From a virus (Duplodnaviria > Caudoviricetes), in IMG/VR virus record IMGVR_UViG_3300025316_001101: a DNA stretch of 64,000 bases; one strand, 5' to 3'. A model generated the notes under the pieces. That model had not been told where the DNA came from. It saw nothing but the letters and a program-made list of their open reading frames with translations, and made no database searches. Below are positions 1 to 36,166 of this stretch, one piece after another; the first letter of the stretch is position 1; the number at the start of each line of letters is the position of its first letter. The position numbers and the translations under genes were made by a program.

Positions 1-991
1 CAAATAAATTCACGTTCCACAAGTATTCATTTCCAGCTTTTATTATAGTAGCAAAATTGAAAATATATTCTCTAGGAAGCGATTTCTCACAACATAGTCC
101 GTCCACTTCATATTCTTTCAAACCCACGTATCTAGCTCTTTCATCACAATAAACAAATGGAGATCTGGCCGCAATAGCTAATCGTGATATGCCAGAAAAT
201 ACGTCTAATACGCAATCTACACTTCGCATTAAAGCTAATACTTTATTAATGTCTTTTTCAGCCACACAAAGACATCTGCCTAATACATCTTGCGAAATAT
301 CGTGAGTGGAAAAATTTTGATAAACTACAGGCATAAACCCTTCATTTAATAACCTATTAACCAATTCCATCCAAAATCTTCTATCTGTCGCTAACCATTC
401 CACGTGTCCATGTATCCACTGCTGCACATTACGAGTTGGATGAAGCAGTATCTTTGGTTGGGTTTTAGATGTCAATTCTTGTAAAAATCCATGCCCCATT
501 ATAGACACTGAAGAAATAGATGGCAAGAACACCTTAACATGCTTAAATTTATCCCAAAACGCCTGTTGTATTCCTCTCTGATAAAACGATTCTAATGCCG
601 TTGGTCCAACAACATCCTCAAAAAAATAATGCAACTGACGCACGTGAGATACAGCCTGCGAGGATTCATTTGCAAATTCAAACGCCTCACGATGTAATGC
701 AAGTAATGATTCATCCTTGACCGACCAATATTCATCTACATTTGGAAACATAGATTCATATCCCGGCCAAGTACACAAAATAAAGTATTTGGAACCCTTC
801 AACTGTTCTCTATATCTTCTTAAAAGCATAGAAGATAAAATGCAAAGAGAACGCACATCACCAAAAAACCACATCACACATACATCAGACATTGATATGG
901 GCATACCATGAGTAGGCACTCTACTACGAACAAATCCAGATTTATCCGCAGCCCTCTTTAATATAGCATTTACATCAATATCACCGCTCAT
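1..991 (-). CDS. GT-B (GT9/heptosyltransferase-like) glycosyltransferase, truncated at window edge
   Basis: Not in the ORF track. Manual translation from ATG 991 (MSGDIDVNAILKRAADKSG...) stays open to base 1 (330 codons). Contains CTWPGYESMFPNVDEYW and LDVFSGISRLAIAARSPF, paralleling the upstream GT. Confidence 0.6.
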   Translation of the reverse strand, partial: MSGDIDVNAILKRAADKSGFVRSRVPTHGMPISMSDVCVMWFFGDVRSLCILSSMLLRRYREQLKGSKYFILCTWPGYESMFPNVDEYWSVKDESLLALHREAFEFANESSQAVSHVRQLHYFFEDVVGPTALESFYQRGIQQAFWDKFKHVKVFLPSISSVSIMGHGFLQELTSKTQPKILLHPTRNVQQWIHGHVEWLATDRRFWMELVNRLLNEGFMPVVYQNFSTHDISQDVLGRCLCVAEKDINKVLALMRSVDCVLDVFSGISRLAIAARSPFVYCDERARYVGLKEYEVDGLCCEKSLPREYIFNFATIIKAGNEYLWNVNLF

Positions 992-2168
992 TATTTGCTC
1001 CAATTCTTATGGAGTTATCATTAATCATTGATTGAACTGCCATATCTGATTCTAACATACCAAGCACCTCAGCATAATCACCGTGCTGCATTTCTTCTAT
1101 ACATTTTTTAACCAAATTAATAGCAGTATCATTATCTTCATGCACGCTCTTAAAATGCGACAAACAAAGCTTTCTAGGACCAAAATCACATAGATTTCTT
1201 CTATACCCCTCTTGTCCATTACCATAAATCTGATCTGGACTTTCAAATAAAAGATAAGGTACGCCCAACATGCCCGCTAATCGTGTAGATGCCGTCCAAA
1301 ACTGAACTGTAAAACTTAATCTAGAAACAATAGCCAAAGTTAACTCTAAATCCTTCGCCTCTTCCATTCTAGAAAAATCAATAACGCCTTCTACAGGACA
1401 CGGTTGTGTTGTTTGTTTTTCTCCCAACCATACCGGACTATAACCCATTTCCTTCAGCAACCCAATCAACTTTACATAAAATTCTGGCTGTAAATTACGT
1501 CCATAACATTTTCTGCCTCTAGCGAAAATTCCAACTGAATTCGATTTCAAATAACTATCCGCCTTTTCTAGCTTCTCCCTAGAGGGCGCAGGTAATCGCA
1601 CTACCATTTTTTTACTTTCTTGCACATTGTCAAAAAGTGACCTCATAACATCCTTGCTTTGACATGCTGGACATTCCGCTTTATCCGCCTCTGCCCACAC
1701 GGAACGACATTTCTTACAAACATTGCCTACAGTATATTGTCCAAGCATTGCCGATTGCAACACGTGCCCATATACCTTAACTTTCTCCTCTACTTTTTTC
1801 AAATTACGAGAATCATGATGAAAGGCTCTGCAATACTCCCGCAACCATTGATGCTCCTCTTTTAACTCCCAAAATTCATCCGCTAAATGTCGATAGAAAT
1901 ATTCTCTTCCATACCAACCCATAACGATTATGTAATACCCCGGAAAATTTTGCGCAATTCTTGATATGCTGTACAATACCCCCAAGGTCTCACATCCGAA
2001 CTCAGAGAAACACGAAATAATTAACGTGTTTTTAGGATTCGGCCTAGCACGATTGTTAAACTTGTGAATATTAAATTGCACATCTTCTATGCGCTCATGT
2101 TCCATGCGTGTCTGTGTGCCTGGATTAATAGGTTGTGGCTTAATTAGAGAACGTGGCTTAATTATCAC
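981..2168 (-). CDS. GT9-like glycosyltransferase with internal Zn-ribbon
   Basis: SEFGCE N-terminal motif; C-terminal VWLGE...DLELTLAIVSRLSFTVQFWTASTRLAGMLGVPYLL resembles GT9; CKKC...CPAC insertion. Confidence 0.6.
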   Translation of the reverse strand: MIIKPRSLIKPQPINPGTQTRMEHERIEDVQFNIHKFNNRARPNPKNTLIISCFSEFGCETLGVLYSISRIAQNFPGYYIIVMGWYGREYFYRHLADEFWELKEEHQWLREYCRAFHHDSRNLKKVEEKVKVYGHVLQSAMLGQYTVGNVCKKCRSVWAEADKAECPACQSKDVMRSLFDNVQESKKMVVRLPAPSREKLEKADSYLKSNSVGIFARGRKCYGRNLQPEFYVKLIGLLKEMGYSPVWLGEKQTTQPCPVEGVIDFSRMEEAKDLELTLAIVSRLSFTVQFWTASTRLAGMLGVPYLLFESPDQIYGNGQEGYRRNLCDFGPRKLCLSHFKSVHEDNDTAINLVKKCIEEMQHGDYAEVLGMLESDMAVQSMINDNSIRIGANNER

Positions 2169-2365
2169 TGTTGTTCCCCATTATATTTTATTTTCATCAT
2201 TTTGGCATTGCCGCCACACTTTAAGCACCTAAATTCCCTTGGCCTACCACAATGCGAACATTTCCTCACCTCGGTAAGACCCTTGAGATCATCGGCTGTG
2301 CCGTCACTTGTTCTACCCCAGCGACAACGAGGGCAGCGAATTATAAACGTCTTTGGTAAATCCAT
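2165..2365 (-). CDS. small Zn-ribbon protein
   Basis: CPRC, CSHC and CLKC in 66 aa. Confidence 0.7.
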   Translation of the reverse strand: MDLPKTFIIRCPRCRWGRTSDGTADDLKGLTEVRKCSHCGRPREFRCLKCGGNAKMMKIKYNGEQQ

Positions 2366-2386
2366 ACCATAATGTAGTAATCAACG

Positions 2387-2420
2387 AAAAAAGCCCACCC
2401 GGCTGTGCCGGGTGGGCTTT
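2387..2420 (-). terminator. GC-rich hairpin terminator, CCCACCCGGC family
   Basis: GCCCACCCGGC-TGT-GCCGGGTGGGC with a 6-T tail on the minus strand. Confidence 0.85.
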
Positions 2421-2424
2421 GTGT

Positions 2425-2955
2425 TTAATCTTCACCAAGATCGGAAAACGGTTTTTCCAGTAATAATCCCAAAAACTCTTTCATCCATTTATAGATTTTA
2501 CCCTGACGAGGAATTCCGTACTTAGGCATAGCATCTTCTTTGATCCATTCCCAAACATTAGTTCCGAATTCTGTTGCTCTAGCATAAAAATCACAACACA
2601 TCTCAGCCACATACAACCTGGGCATATTACTTGCACTTCCCCAAAATTCGGGGTGGTGTTTATTCGTTCTCTGATGATGAGATACGGCCAATGCTAAGGC
2701 TCCATTGCCATTAGTACGAGAGCCAACTAGATAATCCCATTCAATGCCAGACCATTTAGAATGATCGTGAGTTTGTCCTGCGGCAATAAGATGAATGCCC
2801 AAATCGATCTCACCTTTATCAATGAGTCGTCTACCAAGCAACTGACAGGCTTCTTGGACATTAGATATGTGGCGAAGGAGGGCGTCCACTTTTTCCTTAG
2901 CCCTAACACACTCTTCAAGACTGGGTTCGCCCCCGTCTCCCTCTAATTCGTTCAA
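2425..2955 (-). CDS. HD-superfamily phosphohydrolase (DUF5662-like)
   Basis: RHISNV...HDHSKW...HHQRTNKHHPEFW...MPRLYVAEMCCD pattern. Confidence 0.7.
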   Translation of the reverse strand: MNELEGDGGEPSLEECVRAKEKVDALLRHISNVQEACQLLGRRLIDKGEIDLGIHLIAAGQTHDHSKWSGIEWDYLVGSRTNGNGALALAVSHHQRTNKHHPEFWGSASNMPRLYVAEMCCDFYARATEFGTNVWEWIKEDAMPKYGIPRQGKIYKWMKEFLGLLLEKPFSDLGED

Positions 2956-17763: not shown

Positions 17764-19188
17764 TTATTGTTCTTCCCAAGGGGCAATACTGTTATCAACT
17801 ATTTGTGCGGCTGGTTCAAACTCTGGCTCTTTAGGTTTTGGAGGATCATAATTTCCACTAAATCTTAGTCGAATTGATTTACCACCACGGGCAGGACTCA
17901 TAAACCGTGAAAACAACAAATCATGCAGGATTGGATTCACATCAGTAATTCCCAAAAGGTAATTGGTTAGTGCGCCCACTCCTGAACCACGACCAGGACC
18001 AACAGCTTCGGTCCCATCTGTACCGTACTTTTCGGCACAATATCTCCGAGCTTCATCAGTCATCATCTTTTCGATCAAGAAGTAGCTGGCAAATTCTTTA
18101 CTACAAATCAGACCTAGCTCTTCACGGATACGGTCCAAATACAATTGATTTGTGGGCAAACCACGCTTTTTGAATCCTTCCATCACATACTGCCGCAATT
18201 TATCATTAGCACAATCAATCACTGGCAATTTCAAGGAACGATCCAATTGTACGCCTTTTGCTTTTTCACAAATTCGTACTGTATTTCGTTTAGCCTCTTT
18301 GAACAGTTCGTAATCAATGACATCGCTATACTTCTCTTCCCACTTTTTATTGATCTCGTCCTCTGTTTTCATAAAGAGGTTCTGATCCTGCAACTCGAAA
18401 AGCTCTCCTGCTCGGCCCTCTGAAATCTGTTCCTGAATTTCCGCCAAAGTTTTGCCGGTCTGGATCATGAGCATGACCCGTTGCATAAAGCTATCTTCTT
18501 CTTTACAGTAATGGCAATCGTTTGTAAGAACGAGAGGAATGCCAAACTTCTTATGGGCTTCGACAAGAAATGCATTATAGGGCTTTTGTTTATCAAAGTC
18601 CAGCAGCATCATCTCCAAGTAAAAATGCTCGCCAAACATTTCATGGTACTTGCGTACCACGTCCATTGCTTCGTCTTTTTCCTTGGTGTCAAAAGTATAT
18701 CCAATTTCACAGTTGTAGCAACCACTGCAAAAAGTGATTCCTTCCTTATACTTCGTGAGTTGTTCGTAATTTACTCTAGGTTTATAATAAAATCCATGTA
18801 GCCATCCCCAAGAAGTAAGCTGCACCAAATTCTTGTACCCGACCTCATTATGAGCTATAGCAAGAAGGTGGCACGACTTTCGGAAGCGTTTTTTATCATC
18901 TTCGCCCATACCTTTAATGAACTCACCAGTCGATTGACCGATAGGTACATCTGGTTGCTGGGAATTGAGATATAATTCACATCCAAACAATGGAAATAGC
19001 CCATTATCTTCACAAGCTTGAATTTGGCGTGGGATGGCTCCCATCATGCCATGATCAGTTATGCAAAGATATTGCTGATTAGCGGCCTTAGAATACTCTG
19101 CATACTCTTCGACCATAGCATATCCATCAAGGACACTGAAATCAGTATGTCTATGAAGGTGCTCAAACCCCGTAATTTCATGCTGCAT
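17764..19188 (-). CDS. dnaE: DNA polymerase III alpha, N-terminal gene (PHP domain through the GRGS/FxRF region)
   Basis: HLHRHTDFSVLDG, ITDHG, GCELY, TNDCHY, GPGRGSG, LLGITD, LLFSRFMSPAR; ends before PDID. Confidence 0.95.
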   Translation of the reverse strand: MQHEITGFEHLHRHTDFSVLDGYAMVEEYAEYSKAANQQYLCITDHGMMGAIPRQIQACEDNGLFPLFGCELYLNSQQPDVPIGQSTGEFIKGMGEDDKKRFRKSCHLLAIAHNEVGYKNLVQLTSWGWLHGFYYKPRVNYEQLTKYKEGITFCSGCYNCEIGYTFDTKEKDEAMDVVRKYHEMFGEHFYLEMMLLDFDKQKPYNAFLVEAHKKFGIPLVLTNDCHYCKEEDSFMQRVMLMIQTGKTLAEIQEQISEGRAGELFELQDQNLFMKTEDEINKKWEEKYSDVIDYELFKEAKRNTVRICEKAKGVQLDRSLKLPVIDCANDKLRQYVMEGFKKRGLPTNQLYLDRIREELGLICSKEFASYFLIEKMMTDEARRYCAEKYGTDGTEAVGPGRGSGVGALTNYLLGITDVNPILHDLLFSRFMSPARGGKSIRLRFSGNYDPPKPKEPEFEPAAQIVDNSIAPWEEQ

Positions 19189-19197
19189 TATTTCACC

Positions 19198-19422
19198 TTA
19201 TGATACTGGCTTGTCTTTCTTAGCCTTCTTGCCAAGATTTGCCTGCCAATCATCATAAAGTTTTTTGGCTTCTGCGTCTAGGGCAGCTACCTCTTGCTGA
19301 AATTTTGTATAAATTTCCTTGATCTCAGCAGCCTTCGCCTTTTTGATATCATGGATCTTTCTAATCTCATCAGCAAACCCTGCAAACTCATCAGTCAACA
19401 ATAGTTCGATTTCGCCTAACAT
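19198..19422 (-). CDS. hypothetical coiled-coil protein
   Basis: 74-aa Lys/Glu/Ala-rich ORF in the operon. Confidence 0.6.
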   Translation of the reverse strand: MLGEIELLLTDEFAGFADEIRKIHDIKKAKAAEIKEIYTKFQQEVAALDAEAKKLYDDWQANLGKKAKKDKPVS

Positions 19423-19432
19423 TTTCTTTCTC

Positions 19433-20137
19433 CTATATGTTCGCTTTGTGTTTCCGACAAATCCGTATCTTGTCTAGATTTTCAAAGCCTTTTTCACCTA
19501 ATATACCATCGGCAAACCCGTAGTAAATTGCTTCATCAGGAGGTAGATACCAGTCACTTTTATCTCGAATTTTTCTATCCAAGAATCTGGAAATCTGCCC
19601 TTCCTTCCACTTTCGTTCTTTGAAGTATGGACCGATTATAGCTCGTCTGGCGAAAATTTGCAACATGCGTTTGCAAAGGCGTTCGTTGACATCAATCATT
19701 TGTTTAGCGGCAATTGAATTAGCATCAAAACTGATAGACCCATGATGGATCATGAAATCAGTATCCGGCATCAGAACCCGATTGTCAGCGGCTTGAAGTA
19801 CCACTCCACTCATTGAAGATGCAACAGTGTGAATCAACATCGTGACAGTAGATCTAGCAAACCGAATAGAATTAAAAATAGCCATACCATCATTCCATTC
19901 ACCACCGATGGTATGGCTATGCACTAAAATATTTGTATCTCGTTGACTATCAAGAACATGCATGTTCTTGACAAACCCTGAAGCCATTCTAAATTCAACT
20001 CCTGGCTCTGTTCCAACATCATCCATTGGAGCCGCACCATGCAAATACAATTCTCTGGAGTGGTAATTGATACCATAAGTGTGAATATCACTAATCAACT
20101 GTTCCAATTCTGACTTCTTACGCAATGAAGGGGCCAT
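19433..20137 (-). CDS. clpP: ClpP-family serine peptidase
   Basis: IHSxGG-like HTIGG; ASSMSG (Ser), FMIHHG (His), SDWY..PDEAIYYGFAD (Asp). Confidence 0.9.
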   Translation of the reverse strand: MAPSLRKKSELEQLISDIHTYGINYHSRELYLHGAAPMDDVGTEPGVEFRMASGFVKNMHVLDSQRDTNILVHSHTIGGEWNDGMAIFNSIRFARSTVTMLIHTVASSMSGVVLQAADNRVLMPDTDFMIHHGSISFDANSIAAKQMIDVNERLCKRMLQIFARRAIIGPYFKERKWKEGQISRFLDRKIRDKSDWYLPPDEAIYYGFADGILGEKGFENLDKIRICRKHKANI

Positions 20138-32960: not shown

Positions 32961-33680
32961 TTAGAGAAGATAATCCTCTAACTTCTCACCCTCATTCCCT
33001 TTCCACGTGCTTGGATCATCCGTTTGTTCTCCTGATCTCAGCATAATACACCCGCAATTTTTGAATGCATCTACTGAAATATAGGCCAAAAGCTTAGCAT
33101 ATGGTTTGCCATCCGATCCTTCGTCTATTTTCAACCATATTTGTACTCCCTCCTTCTTGAAGGCCACAAAAGATTTGCTTCTTTCGTTGTTGTAGGCGGG
33201 AGTTACCCACTCATTGAATATTTCTTGATCTTCCTTGTCCACCACTGTACATTTGCTTCCATTCTTAGTTTCTATGACCTTGGTAGCTACACCCCAATCT
33301 TCTAGGGCCTTCTTGTATTGTTTAATAACATCCTTGGTTCTAGGAAGAAGCAATCTATCCTGGCTTACCGGCATGCAAATAGTATATTTTGATTTTCCAT
33401 GTGCATCCCGACCTTCAACAATCTTATATGGCGGTACAACCGTACCCACCTTTTCCGAGATAAACTTAACTCCCTCAAAAATAACATCACTACCATACTT
33501 GCTATATCTTACCTTGCATTGAAACACACCAAAGTCAATTCCATCATGAATATCTCCTGGTGTCCCACATAGATCGGGCAAATCCTCCCCAAATCTATTC
33601 ATTAAATAACGTCTAATAAAATCTGCTTGTTTGTTACCAGCGGACAACCTCTGTTGAAACGATTTGCATTTTAGATCCAT
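32961..33680 (-). CDS. hypothetical protein
   Basis: 239-aa ORF with no family recognised. Confidence 0.7.
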   Translation of the reverse strand: MDLKCKSFQQRLSAGNKQADFIRRYLMNRFGEDLPDLCGTPGDIHDGIDFGVFQCKVRYSKYGSDVIFEGVKFISEKVGTVVPPYKIVEGRDAHGKSKYTICMPVSQDRLLLPRTKDVIKQYKKALEDWGVATKVIETKNGSKCTVVDKEDQEIFNEWVTPAYNNERSKSFVAFKKEGVQIWLKIDEGSDGKPYAKLLAYISVDAFKNCGCIMLRSGEQTDDPSTWKGNEGEKLEDYLL

Positions 33681-33766
33681 AAATTTTCCAAATAAATTGT
33701 GAACGACGATACTATATAATAGCAGGCAATGAAAGGAAGTGCAAGATGATTACAATTAAAGGTGAA

Positions 33767-34999
33767 TTACCCCGCCCCTAAAGAGGGCGGGGCTTCCGTT
33801 CCAACTAACAGCCCATCTTTGACGGGTCTTATGTCAGGACAAACGGCTAATCCTCGATTCCAGCGAGGAGTTATACCTTCATTGTGAATATTGGTGGCAG
33901 CATTTTCATCCCTATCGTGATTAGTCCAACAATTCCAACAAGTCCATTCTCTATCTTCAAGAGTCAAGTCCTTGTTTTGCCAACCACATACAGAGCATAA
34001 TTGCGAAGATGGAAACCATTTATCCACCTGTCGCAACTCACGACCATACCATTCACATTTGTATTTTAGTTTTTGAATGAACGAAGAAAATGAGGCATCA
34101 TTTTGTTTCCTATGATACGCTCGTTCTCTCCATCGTTCAATTTTCCTAATTTCAGGATCAGCGTTCTTGAGCATATCCTTGACCGACAATGTTTCTAAAA
34201 CAATGACTTGGTTTTCGTTCACTATTTTAGTGCTAACTTTGTGCTGGAAGTCCTCACGAATGTTCCTGATGCGTTGCTCTAACTGGTTTAGTTTGAGATA
34301 CGCTTCTGTCCTACCTTTGCTTTCTTTTTCAGTTCTATTCTTTGCTTTCTTCAAAAACTTCAACCGATTGGAATATTTGGTTCTCGGCAATGGGTTTTTG
34401 TATTTTGTTCCATCGCTACCAACAATAGCACTAACATTTAAGTCAATACCGATGGTTTTATTTGTTGGTTTTAGTTTAGGAATGTCTCGGCTAGTCGTAA
34501 TGCTGATGAAATATTGTCCCGCTTTGTTCTTACTTACCGTAGCAAACTCAATCTCGCCTTCTAATGGTCGGTGAAGCAGAATACGGATGCCTTCCTTGAA
34601 CTTTGGAAAACTTACTTTGTTGCCTTCCACTTTGATGTTTTGTTGGACACGGAATGATTGTTTGCCGTGTTTCTTCTTGAAACGAGGAAATCCCTTTTTG
34701 CCTTTCTTTTGTTTTTTGATGTTGTTGAAGAAATTATCGTATGCGTTTTGTAAGCATCGGGCAGAGTATTGTAATGGTTGGCTTGATGGTTCTTTGAGCC
34801 AAGGTAGTTCTTTCTTCATTTCGGGAAGCGAAGTGGCATTGTCATAATAGTTGAGCGTCTTACCTTCACTTTGATAGGCGGTCATACGTCCAGCAAGCCA
34901 ATGATTATACAGAAACCTTACACAACCGAAATGCTTATTTAGTAGCACTTCCTGTTCAGATGTTGGTTCTAATCTGTATTTGTAAGAAACTAAACTCAC
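33767..34999 (-). CDS. tnpB: TnpB RNA-guided endonuclease, catalytic triad intact
   Basis: N-terminal YKYRLEPT..Q..LLNKHFGCVRFLYN; RuvC-I GID, RuvC-II VLE, Zn finger CSVC...CWNC, RuvC-III HDRDENAATNI. Confidence 0.95.
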   Translation of the reverse strand: MSLVSYKYRLEPTSEQEVLLNKHFGCVRFLYNHWLAGRMTAYQSEGKTLNYYDNATSLPEMKKELPWLKEPSSQPLQYSARCLQNAYDNFFNNIKKQKKGKKGFPRFKKKHGKQSFRVQQNIKVEGNKVSFPKFKEGIRILLHRPLEGEIEFATVSKNKAGQYFISITTSRDIPKLKPTNKTIGIDLNVSAIVGSDGTKYKNPLPRTKYSNRLKFLKKAKNRTEKESKGRTEAYLKLNQLEQRIRNIREDFQHKVSTKIVNENQVIVLETLSVKDMLKNADPEIRKIERWRERAYHRKQNDASFSSFIQKLKYKCEWYGRELRQVDKWFPSSQLCSVCGWQNKDLTLEDREWTCWNCWTNHDRDENAATNIHNEGITPRWNRGLAVCPDIRPVKDGLLVGTEAPPSLGAG

Positions 35000-35160
35000 T
35001 TGTCTCCTGATTGTTTGATATAATCACGAATGAAATCACGCAATGCTTCCGACATTGTTTTGTAGTTCTTGACGCACGCCAACTGAAACTTGTGCATCAG
35101 TGTAGGTTGTATCAAGATGGTTAGGTGCTTCGTGGCTTTTTCTTTGTCTATGTTTTCCAT
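34996..35160 (-). CDS. ribbon-helix-helix (CopG/Arc-like) protein, 54 aa, missed by the ORF track
   Basis: MENIDKEKATKHLTILIQPTLMHKFQLACVKNYKTMSEALRDFIRDYIKQSGDK*; its TGA overlaps the tnpB GTG start. Confidence 0.8.
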   Translation of the reverse strand: MENIDKEKATKHLTILIQPTLMHKFQLACVKNYKTMSEALRDFIRDYIKQSGDK

Positions 35161-35452
35161 ACCAATATACATAGTGTTCTTGGTATCAATTTTTGAAAGA
35201 AATCCGACAATTTTTCCAAAATAATTTTTCCAAGCCGTTTCAACTGATTTTCAGCCCATTTTGATGGGAGGACATTGACCAAACTAAATCAGCGTCAATC
35301 AGTGGTGATTTTGACTAATTTCCATTATGACGCCTTACATCCCGCTACCCTAAAGAGGTTTGCCCTGTTCATTCGGTCGTTCGCCTACGGCTCACTTTCT
35401 CACTCACAGAGCAAACAATCCTTTGGATTGTAGGGGTTTTACGGCGTCCGAG

Positions 35453-36166
35453 ATAAAACTACAACGAGCATTTTGTAAATATGGTGAGTCAGCATTTATG
35501 TTTGAAATAATAGAGCACACATCCGAAAACACATTGTTGGAAAGAGAACAATATTATTTGGACACTTACTGCGATCTTTATAATATTGGCAAACAAGCTA
35601 CGGGTGGAGACAATCTAACATCTCACCCCAACAGAGAAGACATAATCCGCAAAATGAGCGAAGGCTCTAAAAAAGCCAAATCCGAATGGACTGAAGAAAA
35701 ATGGATTAAATACAAGATGAACATTACTGGCAGCAAAAACCCAAATTATGGCAATCGCTGGGACTCCAGCCAACGTGCCAAAATGAGTGCCCGCCGAAAA
35801 GGAAGCAAGACAGACATTGAAACCAAAAATAAAATAAGTGCCGCTTCAAAAAAGATGTGGCAGAATGATGAATACAGACACAAAGAGGCAGAGAGAAGAA
35901 AAGGCAGTGGAAATTCATTCTACGGAAAACACCACACCATAACCTCAAAAGAAAAAATAAGCAGCGTCCAAAAAGATAGATTTTCCAAAATGACGCCAGC
36001 AGAAAAGAAAAAAGCAATTCCTAACATTAAAAAAATAAGCATCGACGGCGTTGTTTTCAACAGTGCCGTCGATGCTGCCAAATCACTTAACATATTAAGA
36101 TCTACGATCTGGTATAGGTTACACTCAAAGAACCCAAAATTTGCCCACTATCAATATATCGACTAA
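35453..36166 (+). pseudogene. N-terminally truncated GIY-YIG endonuclease (NUMOD3-like repeats, C-terminal HTH)
   Basis: Starts mid-domain at IKLQRAFCKYGESAFMFEIIE...YNIG; GIY/YIG/Arg motifs are absent. The upstream part of the listed ORF is IS left-end DNA. Confidence 0.8.

Follow-up and report, generated by a model that had tools for sequence, protein, structure and literature searches.

The window analysed here, 64,000 nucleotides that correspond to bases 35025-99024 of a 259-kb virus record read on the reverse strand, contains a tnpB gene within an element that also carries a small RHH gene and that has no transposase of its own. This raises the question of whether the element is a mobile IS200/IS605 transposon kept in check by the RHH protein or, as was suggested in the initial annotation of the sequence, an RNA-guided nuclease that may have been domesticated for competition between phages. 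The element (copy A; Table 1) is probably a non-autonomous IS200/IS605 transposon of a phage-borne lineage, characterised by IS608-type ends, an ISDra2-type TnpB, Arc-like autoregulation, and homing. The pairing of an RHH protein with TnpB is not new, having been described in 2023 and tested in 2026; the most original part of the element is its branched left end.

Table 1. Features of copy A and its surroundings (window positions), and the other related elements of the phage genome (genome positions)
Feature	Position	Strand	Remarks
Target and predicted TAM, TTTAT (TnpA cleavage tetranucleotide TTAT)	35453-35457	-	Outside the element
Whole element, copy A of six in the phage genome	33762-35452	-	1,691 bp; similarity shared between copies begins and ends exactly here
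Structured left end	35322-35452	-	Outer helix P0, guide AAAA (35437-35440), TnpA hairpin stem CCCCTAC/GTAGCGGG, small hairpin, long GA-rich stem; covariance model R1
Branched insert, 5′ arm of the left-end hairpin	35359-35429	-	71 nt; same coordinates as in the initial annotation
Conserved spacer, then candidate promoter/operator region	35161-35321	-	Promoter role presumed
RHH (Arc-like) gene	34996-35160	-	54 aa; TGA stop overlaps the tnpB GTG start as GTGA (4 nt)
tnpB	33767-34999	-	410 aa, ISDra2-like; GTG start; D186/E269/D364 and C4 zinc finger intact
OmegaRNA-like scaffold	33762-33881	-	Part backed by covariation; may reach 5′ to ~33960; overlaps the 3′ end of tnpB; expression presumed
Guide GAAG, within scaffold	33793-33796	-
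Right-end hairpin, within scaffold	33770-33792	-
TCAC, within scaffold	33762-33765	-
Predicted 20-nt guide, right flank	33742-33761	-	5′-CTTTAATTGTAATCATCTTG; position from known TnpB biology
Copy B	178148-179817		RHH-tnpB; whole-genome search, same ends as A
Copy C	207119-208812		RHH-tnpB; whole-genome search, same ends as A
Copy D	661-2580		Y1 tnpA and tnpB; same ends as A; outside the window
Element E	18190-19762 (L091:1190-2763)		Second TnpB clade (Pfam OrfB_IS605 and TNB); left-end structure common with A-D
Element F	133303 to ~134801 (L089 ~1004 to ~2502)		Second TnpB clade; starts after TTAT at 133299-133302

Element boundaries and insertion site

The limits of the element were defined by alignment of four copies from the phage genome (A-D), in which similarity begins right after TTTAT, at window position 35452, and ends right after TCAC, the last C of which is position 33762. 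These edges match exactly the ends first annotated. On the minus strand, the order of features is TTTAT, the structured left end, the 54-aa RHH gene, tnpB, the omegaRNA-like 3′ region, the right-end hairpin, and TCAC. There are approximately 290 nt of non-coding DNA between TTTAT and the 54-aa ORF and, 3′ of tnpB, a GC-rich hairpin followed by TAATTCAC. TTTAT lies directly before all four of the A-D copies, the flanks of which show no target duplication, and TTAT, or TTAC with an altered guide, precedes independent insertions on other contigs.

The thyA gene is upstream of the element, on the same strand. Between the two, on the opposite strand, is an I-TevI-like homing-endonuclease gene that retains DNA-binding modules only, without a GIY-YIG Pfam match. 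This GIY-YIG gene is interrupted by the element, its pieces being present at window positions 33700-33761 (+) and 35453-36166 (+). The right-flank piece consists of a promoter-like motif, an AGGAAG ribosome site, and five codons (MITIK), and the left-flank piece contains the last 237 codons; about 35-40 N-terminal codons, with the GIY and YIG motifs, are gone. Precise removal of the element does not rejoin the reading frame. Since precise excision would leave the frame broken and the N-terminal codons gone, the deletion came with or after insertion, and the site has therefore been altered since the element arrived.

An element-free allele was sought using exact patterns of the homing-endonuclease flank and of the joint between TAM and guide, neither of which was matched in viral or metagenome contigs. 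Likewise, a protein search of viral contigs for relatives of the homing endonuclease was empty, there is no paralogue in the phage genome, and megablast of the region gave no match to GenBank phages. In assemblies from four public runs, the DNA contigs stop at the element ends, as expected of a repeat, and none spans the element. A peat RNA library yielded one 150-nt contig inside tnpB, at a depth of 2, which is no evidence of transcription.

Terminal sequences and the IS608 code

In IS608, a 4-nt guide 5′ of the foot of each hairpin recognises the cleavage tetranucleotide: cleavage positions 1, 2, and 4 pair with guide positions 2, 1, and 4, respectively, and the third base is left unpaired (PMC3201880). 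The layout of copy A is as it was originally described, with GAAG and a hairpin ahead of TCAC on the right and TTAT ahead of AAAA and a hairpin on the left. The left cleavage site and guide are TTAT/AAAA in A-D and F, TCAT/GAAA in E, and TTAC/AAAG in two relatives (L016 and L151). On the right, the pairs are TCAC/GAAG in A-D, TGAC/CAAG in E and F, TCAT/GAAA in L022, L023, and L025, and TCAA/GAAT in L030. All six elements and the relatives obey the IS608 code on the left and on the right, with each variant compensated. The end features of the IS200/IS605 family are all present (subterminal hairpins, 4-nt guides, a fixed tetranucleotide, and neither inverted repeats nor target duplication), and, judged from sequence, both ends appear to be genuine substrates of a Y1 TnpA.

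Related elements in the phage genome

Six related elements (A-F) are present in the 259-kb phage genome, all on one strand and in the same direction as the adjoining phage genes, an orientation that fits strand-specific (lagging-strand template) insertion. The cargo is RHH-tnpB in three (A, B, and C), includes an intact Y1 tnpA in one (D), and is a second-clade TnpB alone in two (E and F). In the latter two, the 450-aa TnpB is of a different clade and is accompanied by neither RHH nor tnpA, and the branched left end is present. The right-end hairpin of E also holds a branched insert, which would therefore belong to the omegaRNA of that element.

The transposase of copy D is a 141-aa Y1 protein (PF01797; E = 3e-35 and 1.6e-34, 119 bits), the translation of which contains an HIH motif and a C-terminal Tyr in RYIEEQ. 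Its gene is on the opposite strand, between the left end and tnpB, in the same slot as the small ORF in A, B, and C. The proposal that RHH stands in place of tnpA is supported by this comparison and extends beyond it: between the same ends, RHH is found in A, B, C, L015-L017, L094, and L098, and a divergent Y1 tnpA in D, L018, L019/20, and L023/24/32. The element had also been called transposase-less, which is correct for copy A but not for the lineage, since its sibling D has an intact Y1 tnpA. The Y1 HUH transposase typical of IS200/IS605 is thus supplied by the sibling and is not in copy A itself, and copy A, lacking the tnpA that is present in D, is non-autonomous.

Among the copies, TnpB is only 74-83% identical, therefore the copies are old and recent movement is not supported. 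Comparison of A, B, and C shows that the RHH gene is the most diverged part (approximately 50% nucleotide identity), against 73-77% for tnpB, 82-95% for the left end, and 83-98% for the omegaRNA/right end. Between B and C, the promoter regions are 82% identical and the RHH genes 53% identical, a pattern unlike that of a repressor closely co-evolving with its operator. On two other contigs (L015:268-2777 and L019:1-2510), 2.5 kb of flank plus left end are 99.8% identical, whereas the cargo (RHH-tnpB versus tnpA-tnpB) and the downstream flanks differ. This difference may be due to a cargo swap by recombination between elements or to an assembly chimera at the repeat.

TnpB, putative omegaRNA, and predicted guide

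The Pfam domains HTH_OrfB, OrfB_IS605, and TNB were identified in TnpB, residues 6-377 of which match the ISDra2 TnpB structures 8EXA and 8H1J (E = 2e-63). The D/E/D triad had been annotated as intact, and D186, E269, D364, and the four Cys are indeed invariant in ten relatives. The closest relatives, three proteins from IMG/VR, are 55-61% identical and have the small ORF; the next, from viral contigs, are 44-47% identical and have a divergent tnpA. The best cellular match is 40% identical.

Three stems are predicted in the last 120 nt of the element, with 17 of the 35 predicted pairs compensatory across 11 sequences, as would be expected of an omegaRNA scaffold that terminates at the right end. 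The arrangement known from IS200/IS605, a TnpB with the RuvC D/E/D residues and zinc finger followed by a 3′ omegaRNA that runs to the right end, is thus indicated by conservation of sequence and structure. With its predicted TTTAT/TTAT TAM, this TnpB is of routine interest as an editing-tool candidate.

When the guides of all copies were compared with the phage genome, the only match was the right flank of each, with no second TAM-adjacent target in that genome. Guides that match their own flanks only follow the ordinary logic of TnpB homing, and they lend no support to the suggested use in competition between phages.

The RHH gene and its upstream region

The 54-aa gene said to be translationally coupled to tnpB was confirmed as an ORF at 34996-35160 with the GTGA overlap and a match to Pfam RHH_1; an alternative ATG start at 35172 would give a protein of 58 aa. 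All six aligned members of the RHH family match RHH_1 (best E 1.7e-6), and the profile of the family matched the RHH domains of ParG and NikR in the PDB. The AlphaFold2 model (pLDDT 83.6) has an extended N-terminus and two helices. Its top Foldseek matches were PutA, CopA, ParG, Arc, and CopG (TM 0.7-0.88, rmsd about 1 Å), none of them at E ≤ 0.001. There are at least 90 clusters of RHH proteins in metagenomes, several of which are named CopG/Arc/MetJ in their sources. An RHH fold, a length of about 50 aa, and a location inside the element by tnpA or tnpB are the characteristics of the IS605 'Arc' proteins, and all three were found here.

Linkage of RHH to tnpB in homologues, on which the initial annotation had staked its interpretation, was seen together with the 4-nt overlap in all eight close relatives. 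The overlap is kept in L015-L017, L094-L097, and L098-L102, and for two RHH homologues the 4-nt stop/start overlap was present at every place inspected; one distant RHH homologue adjoins an unrelated gene. The similarities of RHH and TnpB disagree (window 34996-35160, L092:1426-1581, and L015:2837-2992). The RHH of copy A is 58% identical to that of L015 (54% in a larger alignment) and 33% identical to that of copy B, whereas for TnpB the opposite is seen (60% for L015 and 83% for copy B), therefore the RHH cassette has been exchanged or is fast-evolving.

Just before the RHH start, at ~35167-35177, is a degenerate ATACTATATAA motif. In B, C, E, F, and relatives, this motif is conserved and lies 1-6 nt upstream of the start codon. 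This position, with no ribosome site, suggests that the mRNAs may be short-leader or leaderless. A sigma-70 promoter scan upstream of RHH gave no convincing match, and no operator repeats were clear by eye in 35161-35330. There are eight occurrences of ATACTATATAA in the phage genome against 0.8 expected, with sites at genome positions 18370, 133467, 178409, and 215252 (+) and 65316 and 159289 (-), and the degenerate copy in the window. The motif is always just upstream of genes of a selfish type: the RHH/tnpB genes of the elements, a GIY-YIG remnant, an Endonuclease VII-family gene, and an HTH transposase-like gene.

That the RHH protein is a regulator, as initially annotated, is in accord with the published repression by IS605 Arc (bioRxiv 10.64898/2026.09.24.754181), and its autoregulation is presumed. 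Alternatively, it could be an antitoxin-like partner that blocks cleavage by binding TnpB or TnpB-omegaRNA and is not a promoter repressor. The tight, translationally coupled two-gene operon does resemble a toxin-antitoxin layout, an antitoxin role has been proposed for the archaeal RHH/MazE-TnpB pairs (PMC10691335), and possible contact between Arc and TnpB-omegaRNA is mentioned by Moon et al. (bioRxiv 10.64898/2026.09.24.754181). However, the archaeal clade is immobile and has the RuvC-III D-to-H change, while here D364 is canonical, the ends are of a working type, and there are siblings; in addition, the IS605 Arc that was tested bound promoter DNA. An antitoxin-like role is therefore considered improbable. 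Co-folding of TnpB with two RHH chains gave no support, and this is counted neither for nor against.

It also seems unlikely that the RHH protein acts on transposition, by binding DNA of the ends or by competing with TnpA, which would make the RHH copies excision-resistant 'locked' elements. Such a role would suit the location of RHH in exactly the tnpA slot of the siblings and the conserved spacer of ~100 nt, rich in hairpins, that separates the left-end structure from the promoter, but no repeated motif is common to the ends and the RHH-proximal region, and no precedent was found in the literature examined.

Least of all is it to be expected that this is a domesticated phage weapon, in which TnpB would be kept to cut rival phages or the host with RHH as the switch: although TnpB of this clade is over-represented in very large phage contigs (relatives of 55-61% in IMG/VR against 40% for the best cellular match) and three RHH-tnpB copies are in one phage genome, the transposon ends are intact and covary according to the TnpA code, an autonomous sibling is present in the same genome, the guides are simply right flanks without another TAM-adjacent match, and there is no fixed syntenic position across relatives. 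The domestication proposed at the outset is not supported, given the same intact ends and sibling.

The branched left end

An insert of ~70 nt in the left hairpin, with its own stems, had been noted previously as an expansion of this element. The interval 35359-35429 and the stems stand as given, but the insertion is in the 5′ arm, making a three-way junction, and not in the loop. Nor is it special to copy A, being present in every left end of this IS clade that was found. It is located between CCCCTAC and CCTCTTTAGG, and the corresponding right-end hairpin is plain. The insert is composed of a triloop hairpin and a long stem. In the latter, 2-bp steps alternate with symmetric 2x2 internal loops, of which there are three (GA/GA, AA/GA, GA/GA), and the tip is conserved, with GAG-CG..AGCGA-ACGA invariant. 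The outer helix P0, of GACGCC (35443-35448) with GGCGTC (35329-35334), encloses the entire left end, making the whole a ~125-nt four-helix structure. This helix is GACGCC/GGCGTC in A-D, GGCGGC/GCCGCC in E, and GCGGGC/GCCCGC in F.

In the six genomic left ends, 94% of the cells are paired and eight pairs have double changes, compared to ~40% of cells in slid controls. For 12 sequences, in an alignment fitted to the covariance model and thus favouring the structure, pairing reaches 97.9% of cells and compensatory changes occur in 26 of 37 pairs, with none of 500 shuffles as high. The covariance model has matches upstream of tnpB in L015-L019, L021, L094, L096, L097, L113, L151, and L186, with high scores on the sense strand only. 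Overall, all six elements have the insert at the left end, as do relatives, and E has it at the right end as well. A scan of IMG/VR for the tip motif returned at least 115 pattern matches, 80 of which were re-scored with the model; three full-length matches and one partial match were real, therefore the pattern alone is mostly chance. No description of a branched left end of this kind was found in a limited literature search.

The G-T pairs are on the top strand, indicating that the fold is selected on the tnpB-sense strand. As this is both the strand acted upon by TnpA and the strand transcribed, roles in DNA and in RNA are inseparable by strand. The preferred reading, held at about even confidence, is that the left end provides the single-stranded DNA architecture of the left-end transpososome. 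It is rather less probable that it functions at the RNA level and protects the operon against read-through from phage genes of the same orientation. Tentatively, and with more doubt than belief, a broader proposal can be made: that the ~125-nt left end is an undescribed functional nucleic-acid module of this phage-borne IS605 lineage, either a single-stranded DNA device for left/right asymmetry or for the timing of TnpA cleavage, or an RNA with TnpB, TnpA, or a host factor as its binding partner, and that the swap of RHH for tnpA yields repressed hitch-hiker copies spread by TnpB homing during phage co-infection.

Proposed working of the element

In the transposon reading favoured here, a Y1 TnpA would cut the top strand at each end, 3′ of TTAT (left) and of TCAC (right). 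It would be supplied in trans, most plausibly by copy D, whose cleavage and guide tetranucleotides are identical to those of A and whose hairpins are almost so. The left end would form its four-helix structure on the top strand, with the outer helix bringing the cleavage site beside the guide and the branch either telling left from right or binding a factor. The two genes would be read as an operon from the short-leader or leaderless promoter-like motif, producing a dimeric 54-aa RHH protein and TnpB, coupled by the GTGA overlap. The 3′ end of the transcript would fold to the omegaRNA, with the 20 nt to the right of the element as its guide. With a guide that is the right flank, TnpB would be expected to cut the empty site (TTTAT plus guide) and so drive re-copying of the element, which is homing. 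The RHH protein most likely behaves as the published IS605 'Arc' does, and would bind the element promoter and limit RHH, TnpB, and omegaRNA.

Having either a transposase or an Arc-type regulator within one transposon frame in one genome provides a natural comparison, and a clean system for the control and upkeep of non-autonomous TnpB elements in large phages. The covarying left end is a concrete, testable addition to the IS608 end-recognition model.

Comparison with known systems

In archaeal RHH/MazE-TnpB, as in the phage element, a small RHH gene is directly upstream of tnpB. The archaeal systems have a rearranged RuvC-III (D to H), are immobile, and have been interpreted as toxin-antitoxin (Altae-Tran et al., 2023; PMC10691335). 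In contrast, the phage TnpB triad is canonical, with D364 invariant, and the element is a transposon with ends and siblings present.

The phage element is similar to an IStron in having a long structured left end before Arc/TnpB and in being co-oriented with the surrounding genes. An IStron, or a group I intron at the left end, was considered and rejected because there is no Rfam match, the IS608 code fits both ends, and the last base is C. The Rfam scan (33000-36000, E ≤ 1) returned no family, and thus no known ribozyme, intron, or named omegaRNA motif. Unlike the group I intron ribozyme found at the left end of an IStron, the fold of the phage left end lacks the P3-P9 core and is a closed set of hairpins; the last base of the element is C and not G.

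In 2023, Zedaveinyte et al. (bioRxiv 10.1101/2023.11.20.567912) described RHH 'Arc' ORFs within IStrons and IS605 elements. Arcs have since been demonstrated, using ChIP-seq, reporters, and mutants, to bind and repress the native element promoter, and the elements tested include arc + tnpB alone (Moon, Zedaveinyte, Wiegand & Sternberg, bioRxiv 10.64898/2026.09.24.754181). The phage element likewise has a small RHH gene within IS605 boundaries beside tnpB, the layout of arc + tnpB alone being one that exists. In many of the published systems arc pairs and overlaps with tnpA and is divergent from tnpB, whereas here arc is co-directional with tnpB and overlaps it. Here also, arc is in the place of tnpA and in a giant phage, the likeness being one of fold and gene position.

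The ends are most like those of the model IS200/IS605 elements IS608 (Helicobacter pylori) and ISDra2 (Deinococcus radiodurans), with subterminal hairpins, a 4-nt guide 5′ of the foot, and the same position rule for pairing with the cleavage site. The left cleavage site, outside the element, is 16 nt from the foot, compared to 19 nt in IS608, and the right cleavage site, at the element end, is 8 nt 3′ of the foot, compared to 10 nt. The target is TTAT/TTTAT, rather than the TTAC or TTGAT of IS608/ISDra2. Copy A differs further from these elements in being without tnpA, and the phage element in having two additions at its left end: the conserved 71-nt two-branch insert in the hairpin and the extra 6-bp outer helix that closes it.
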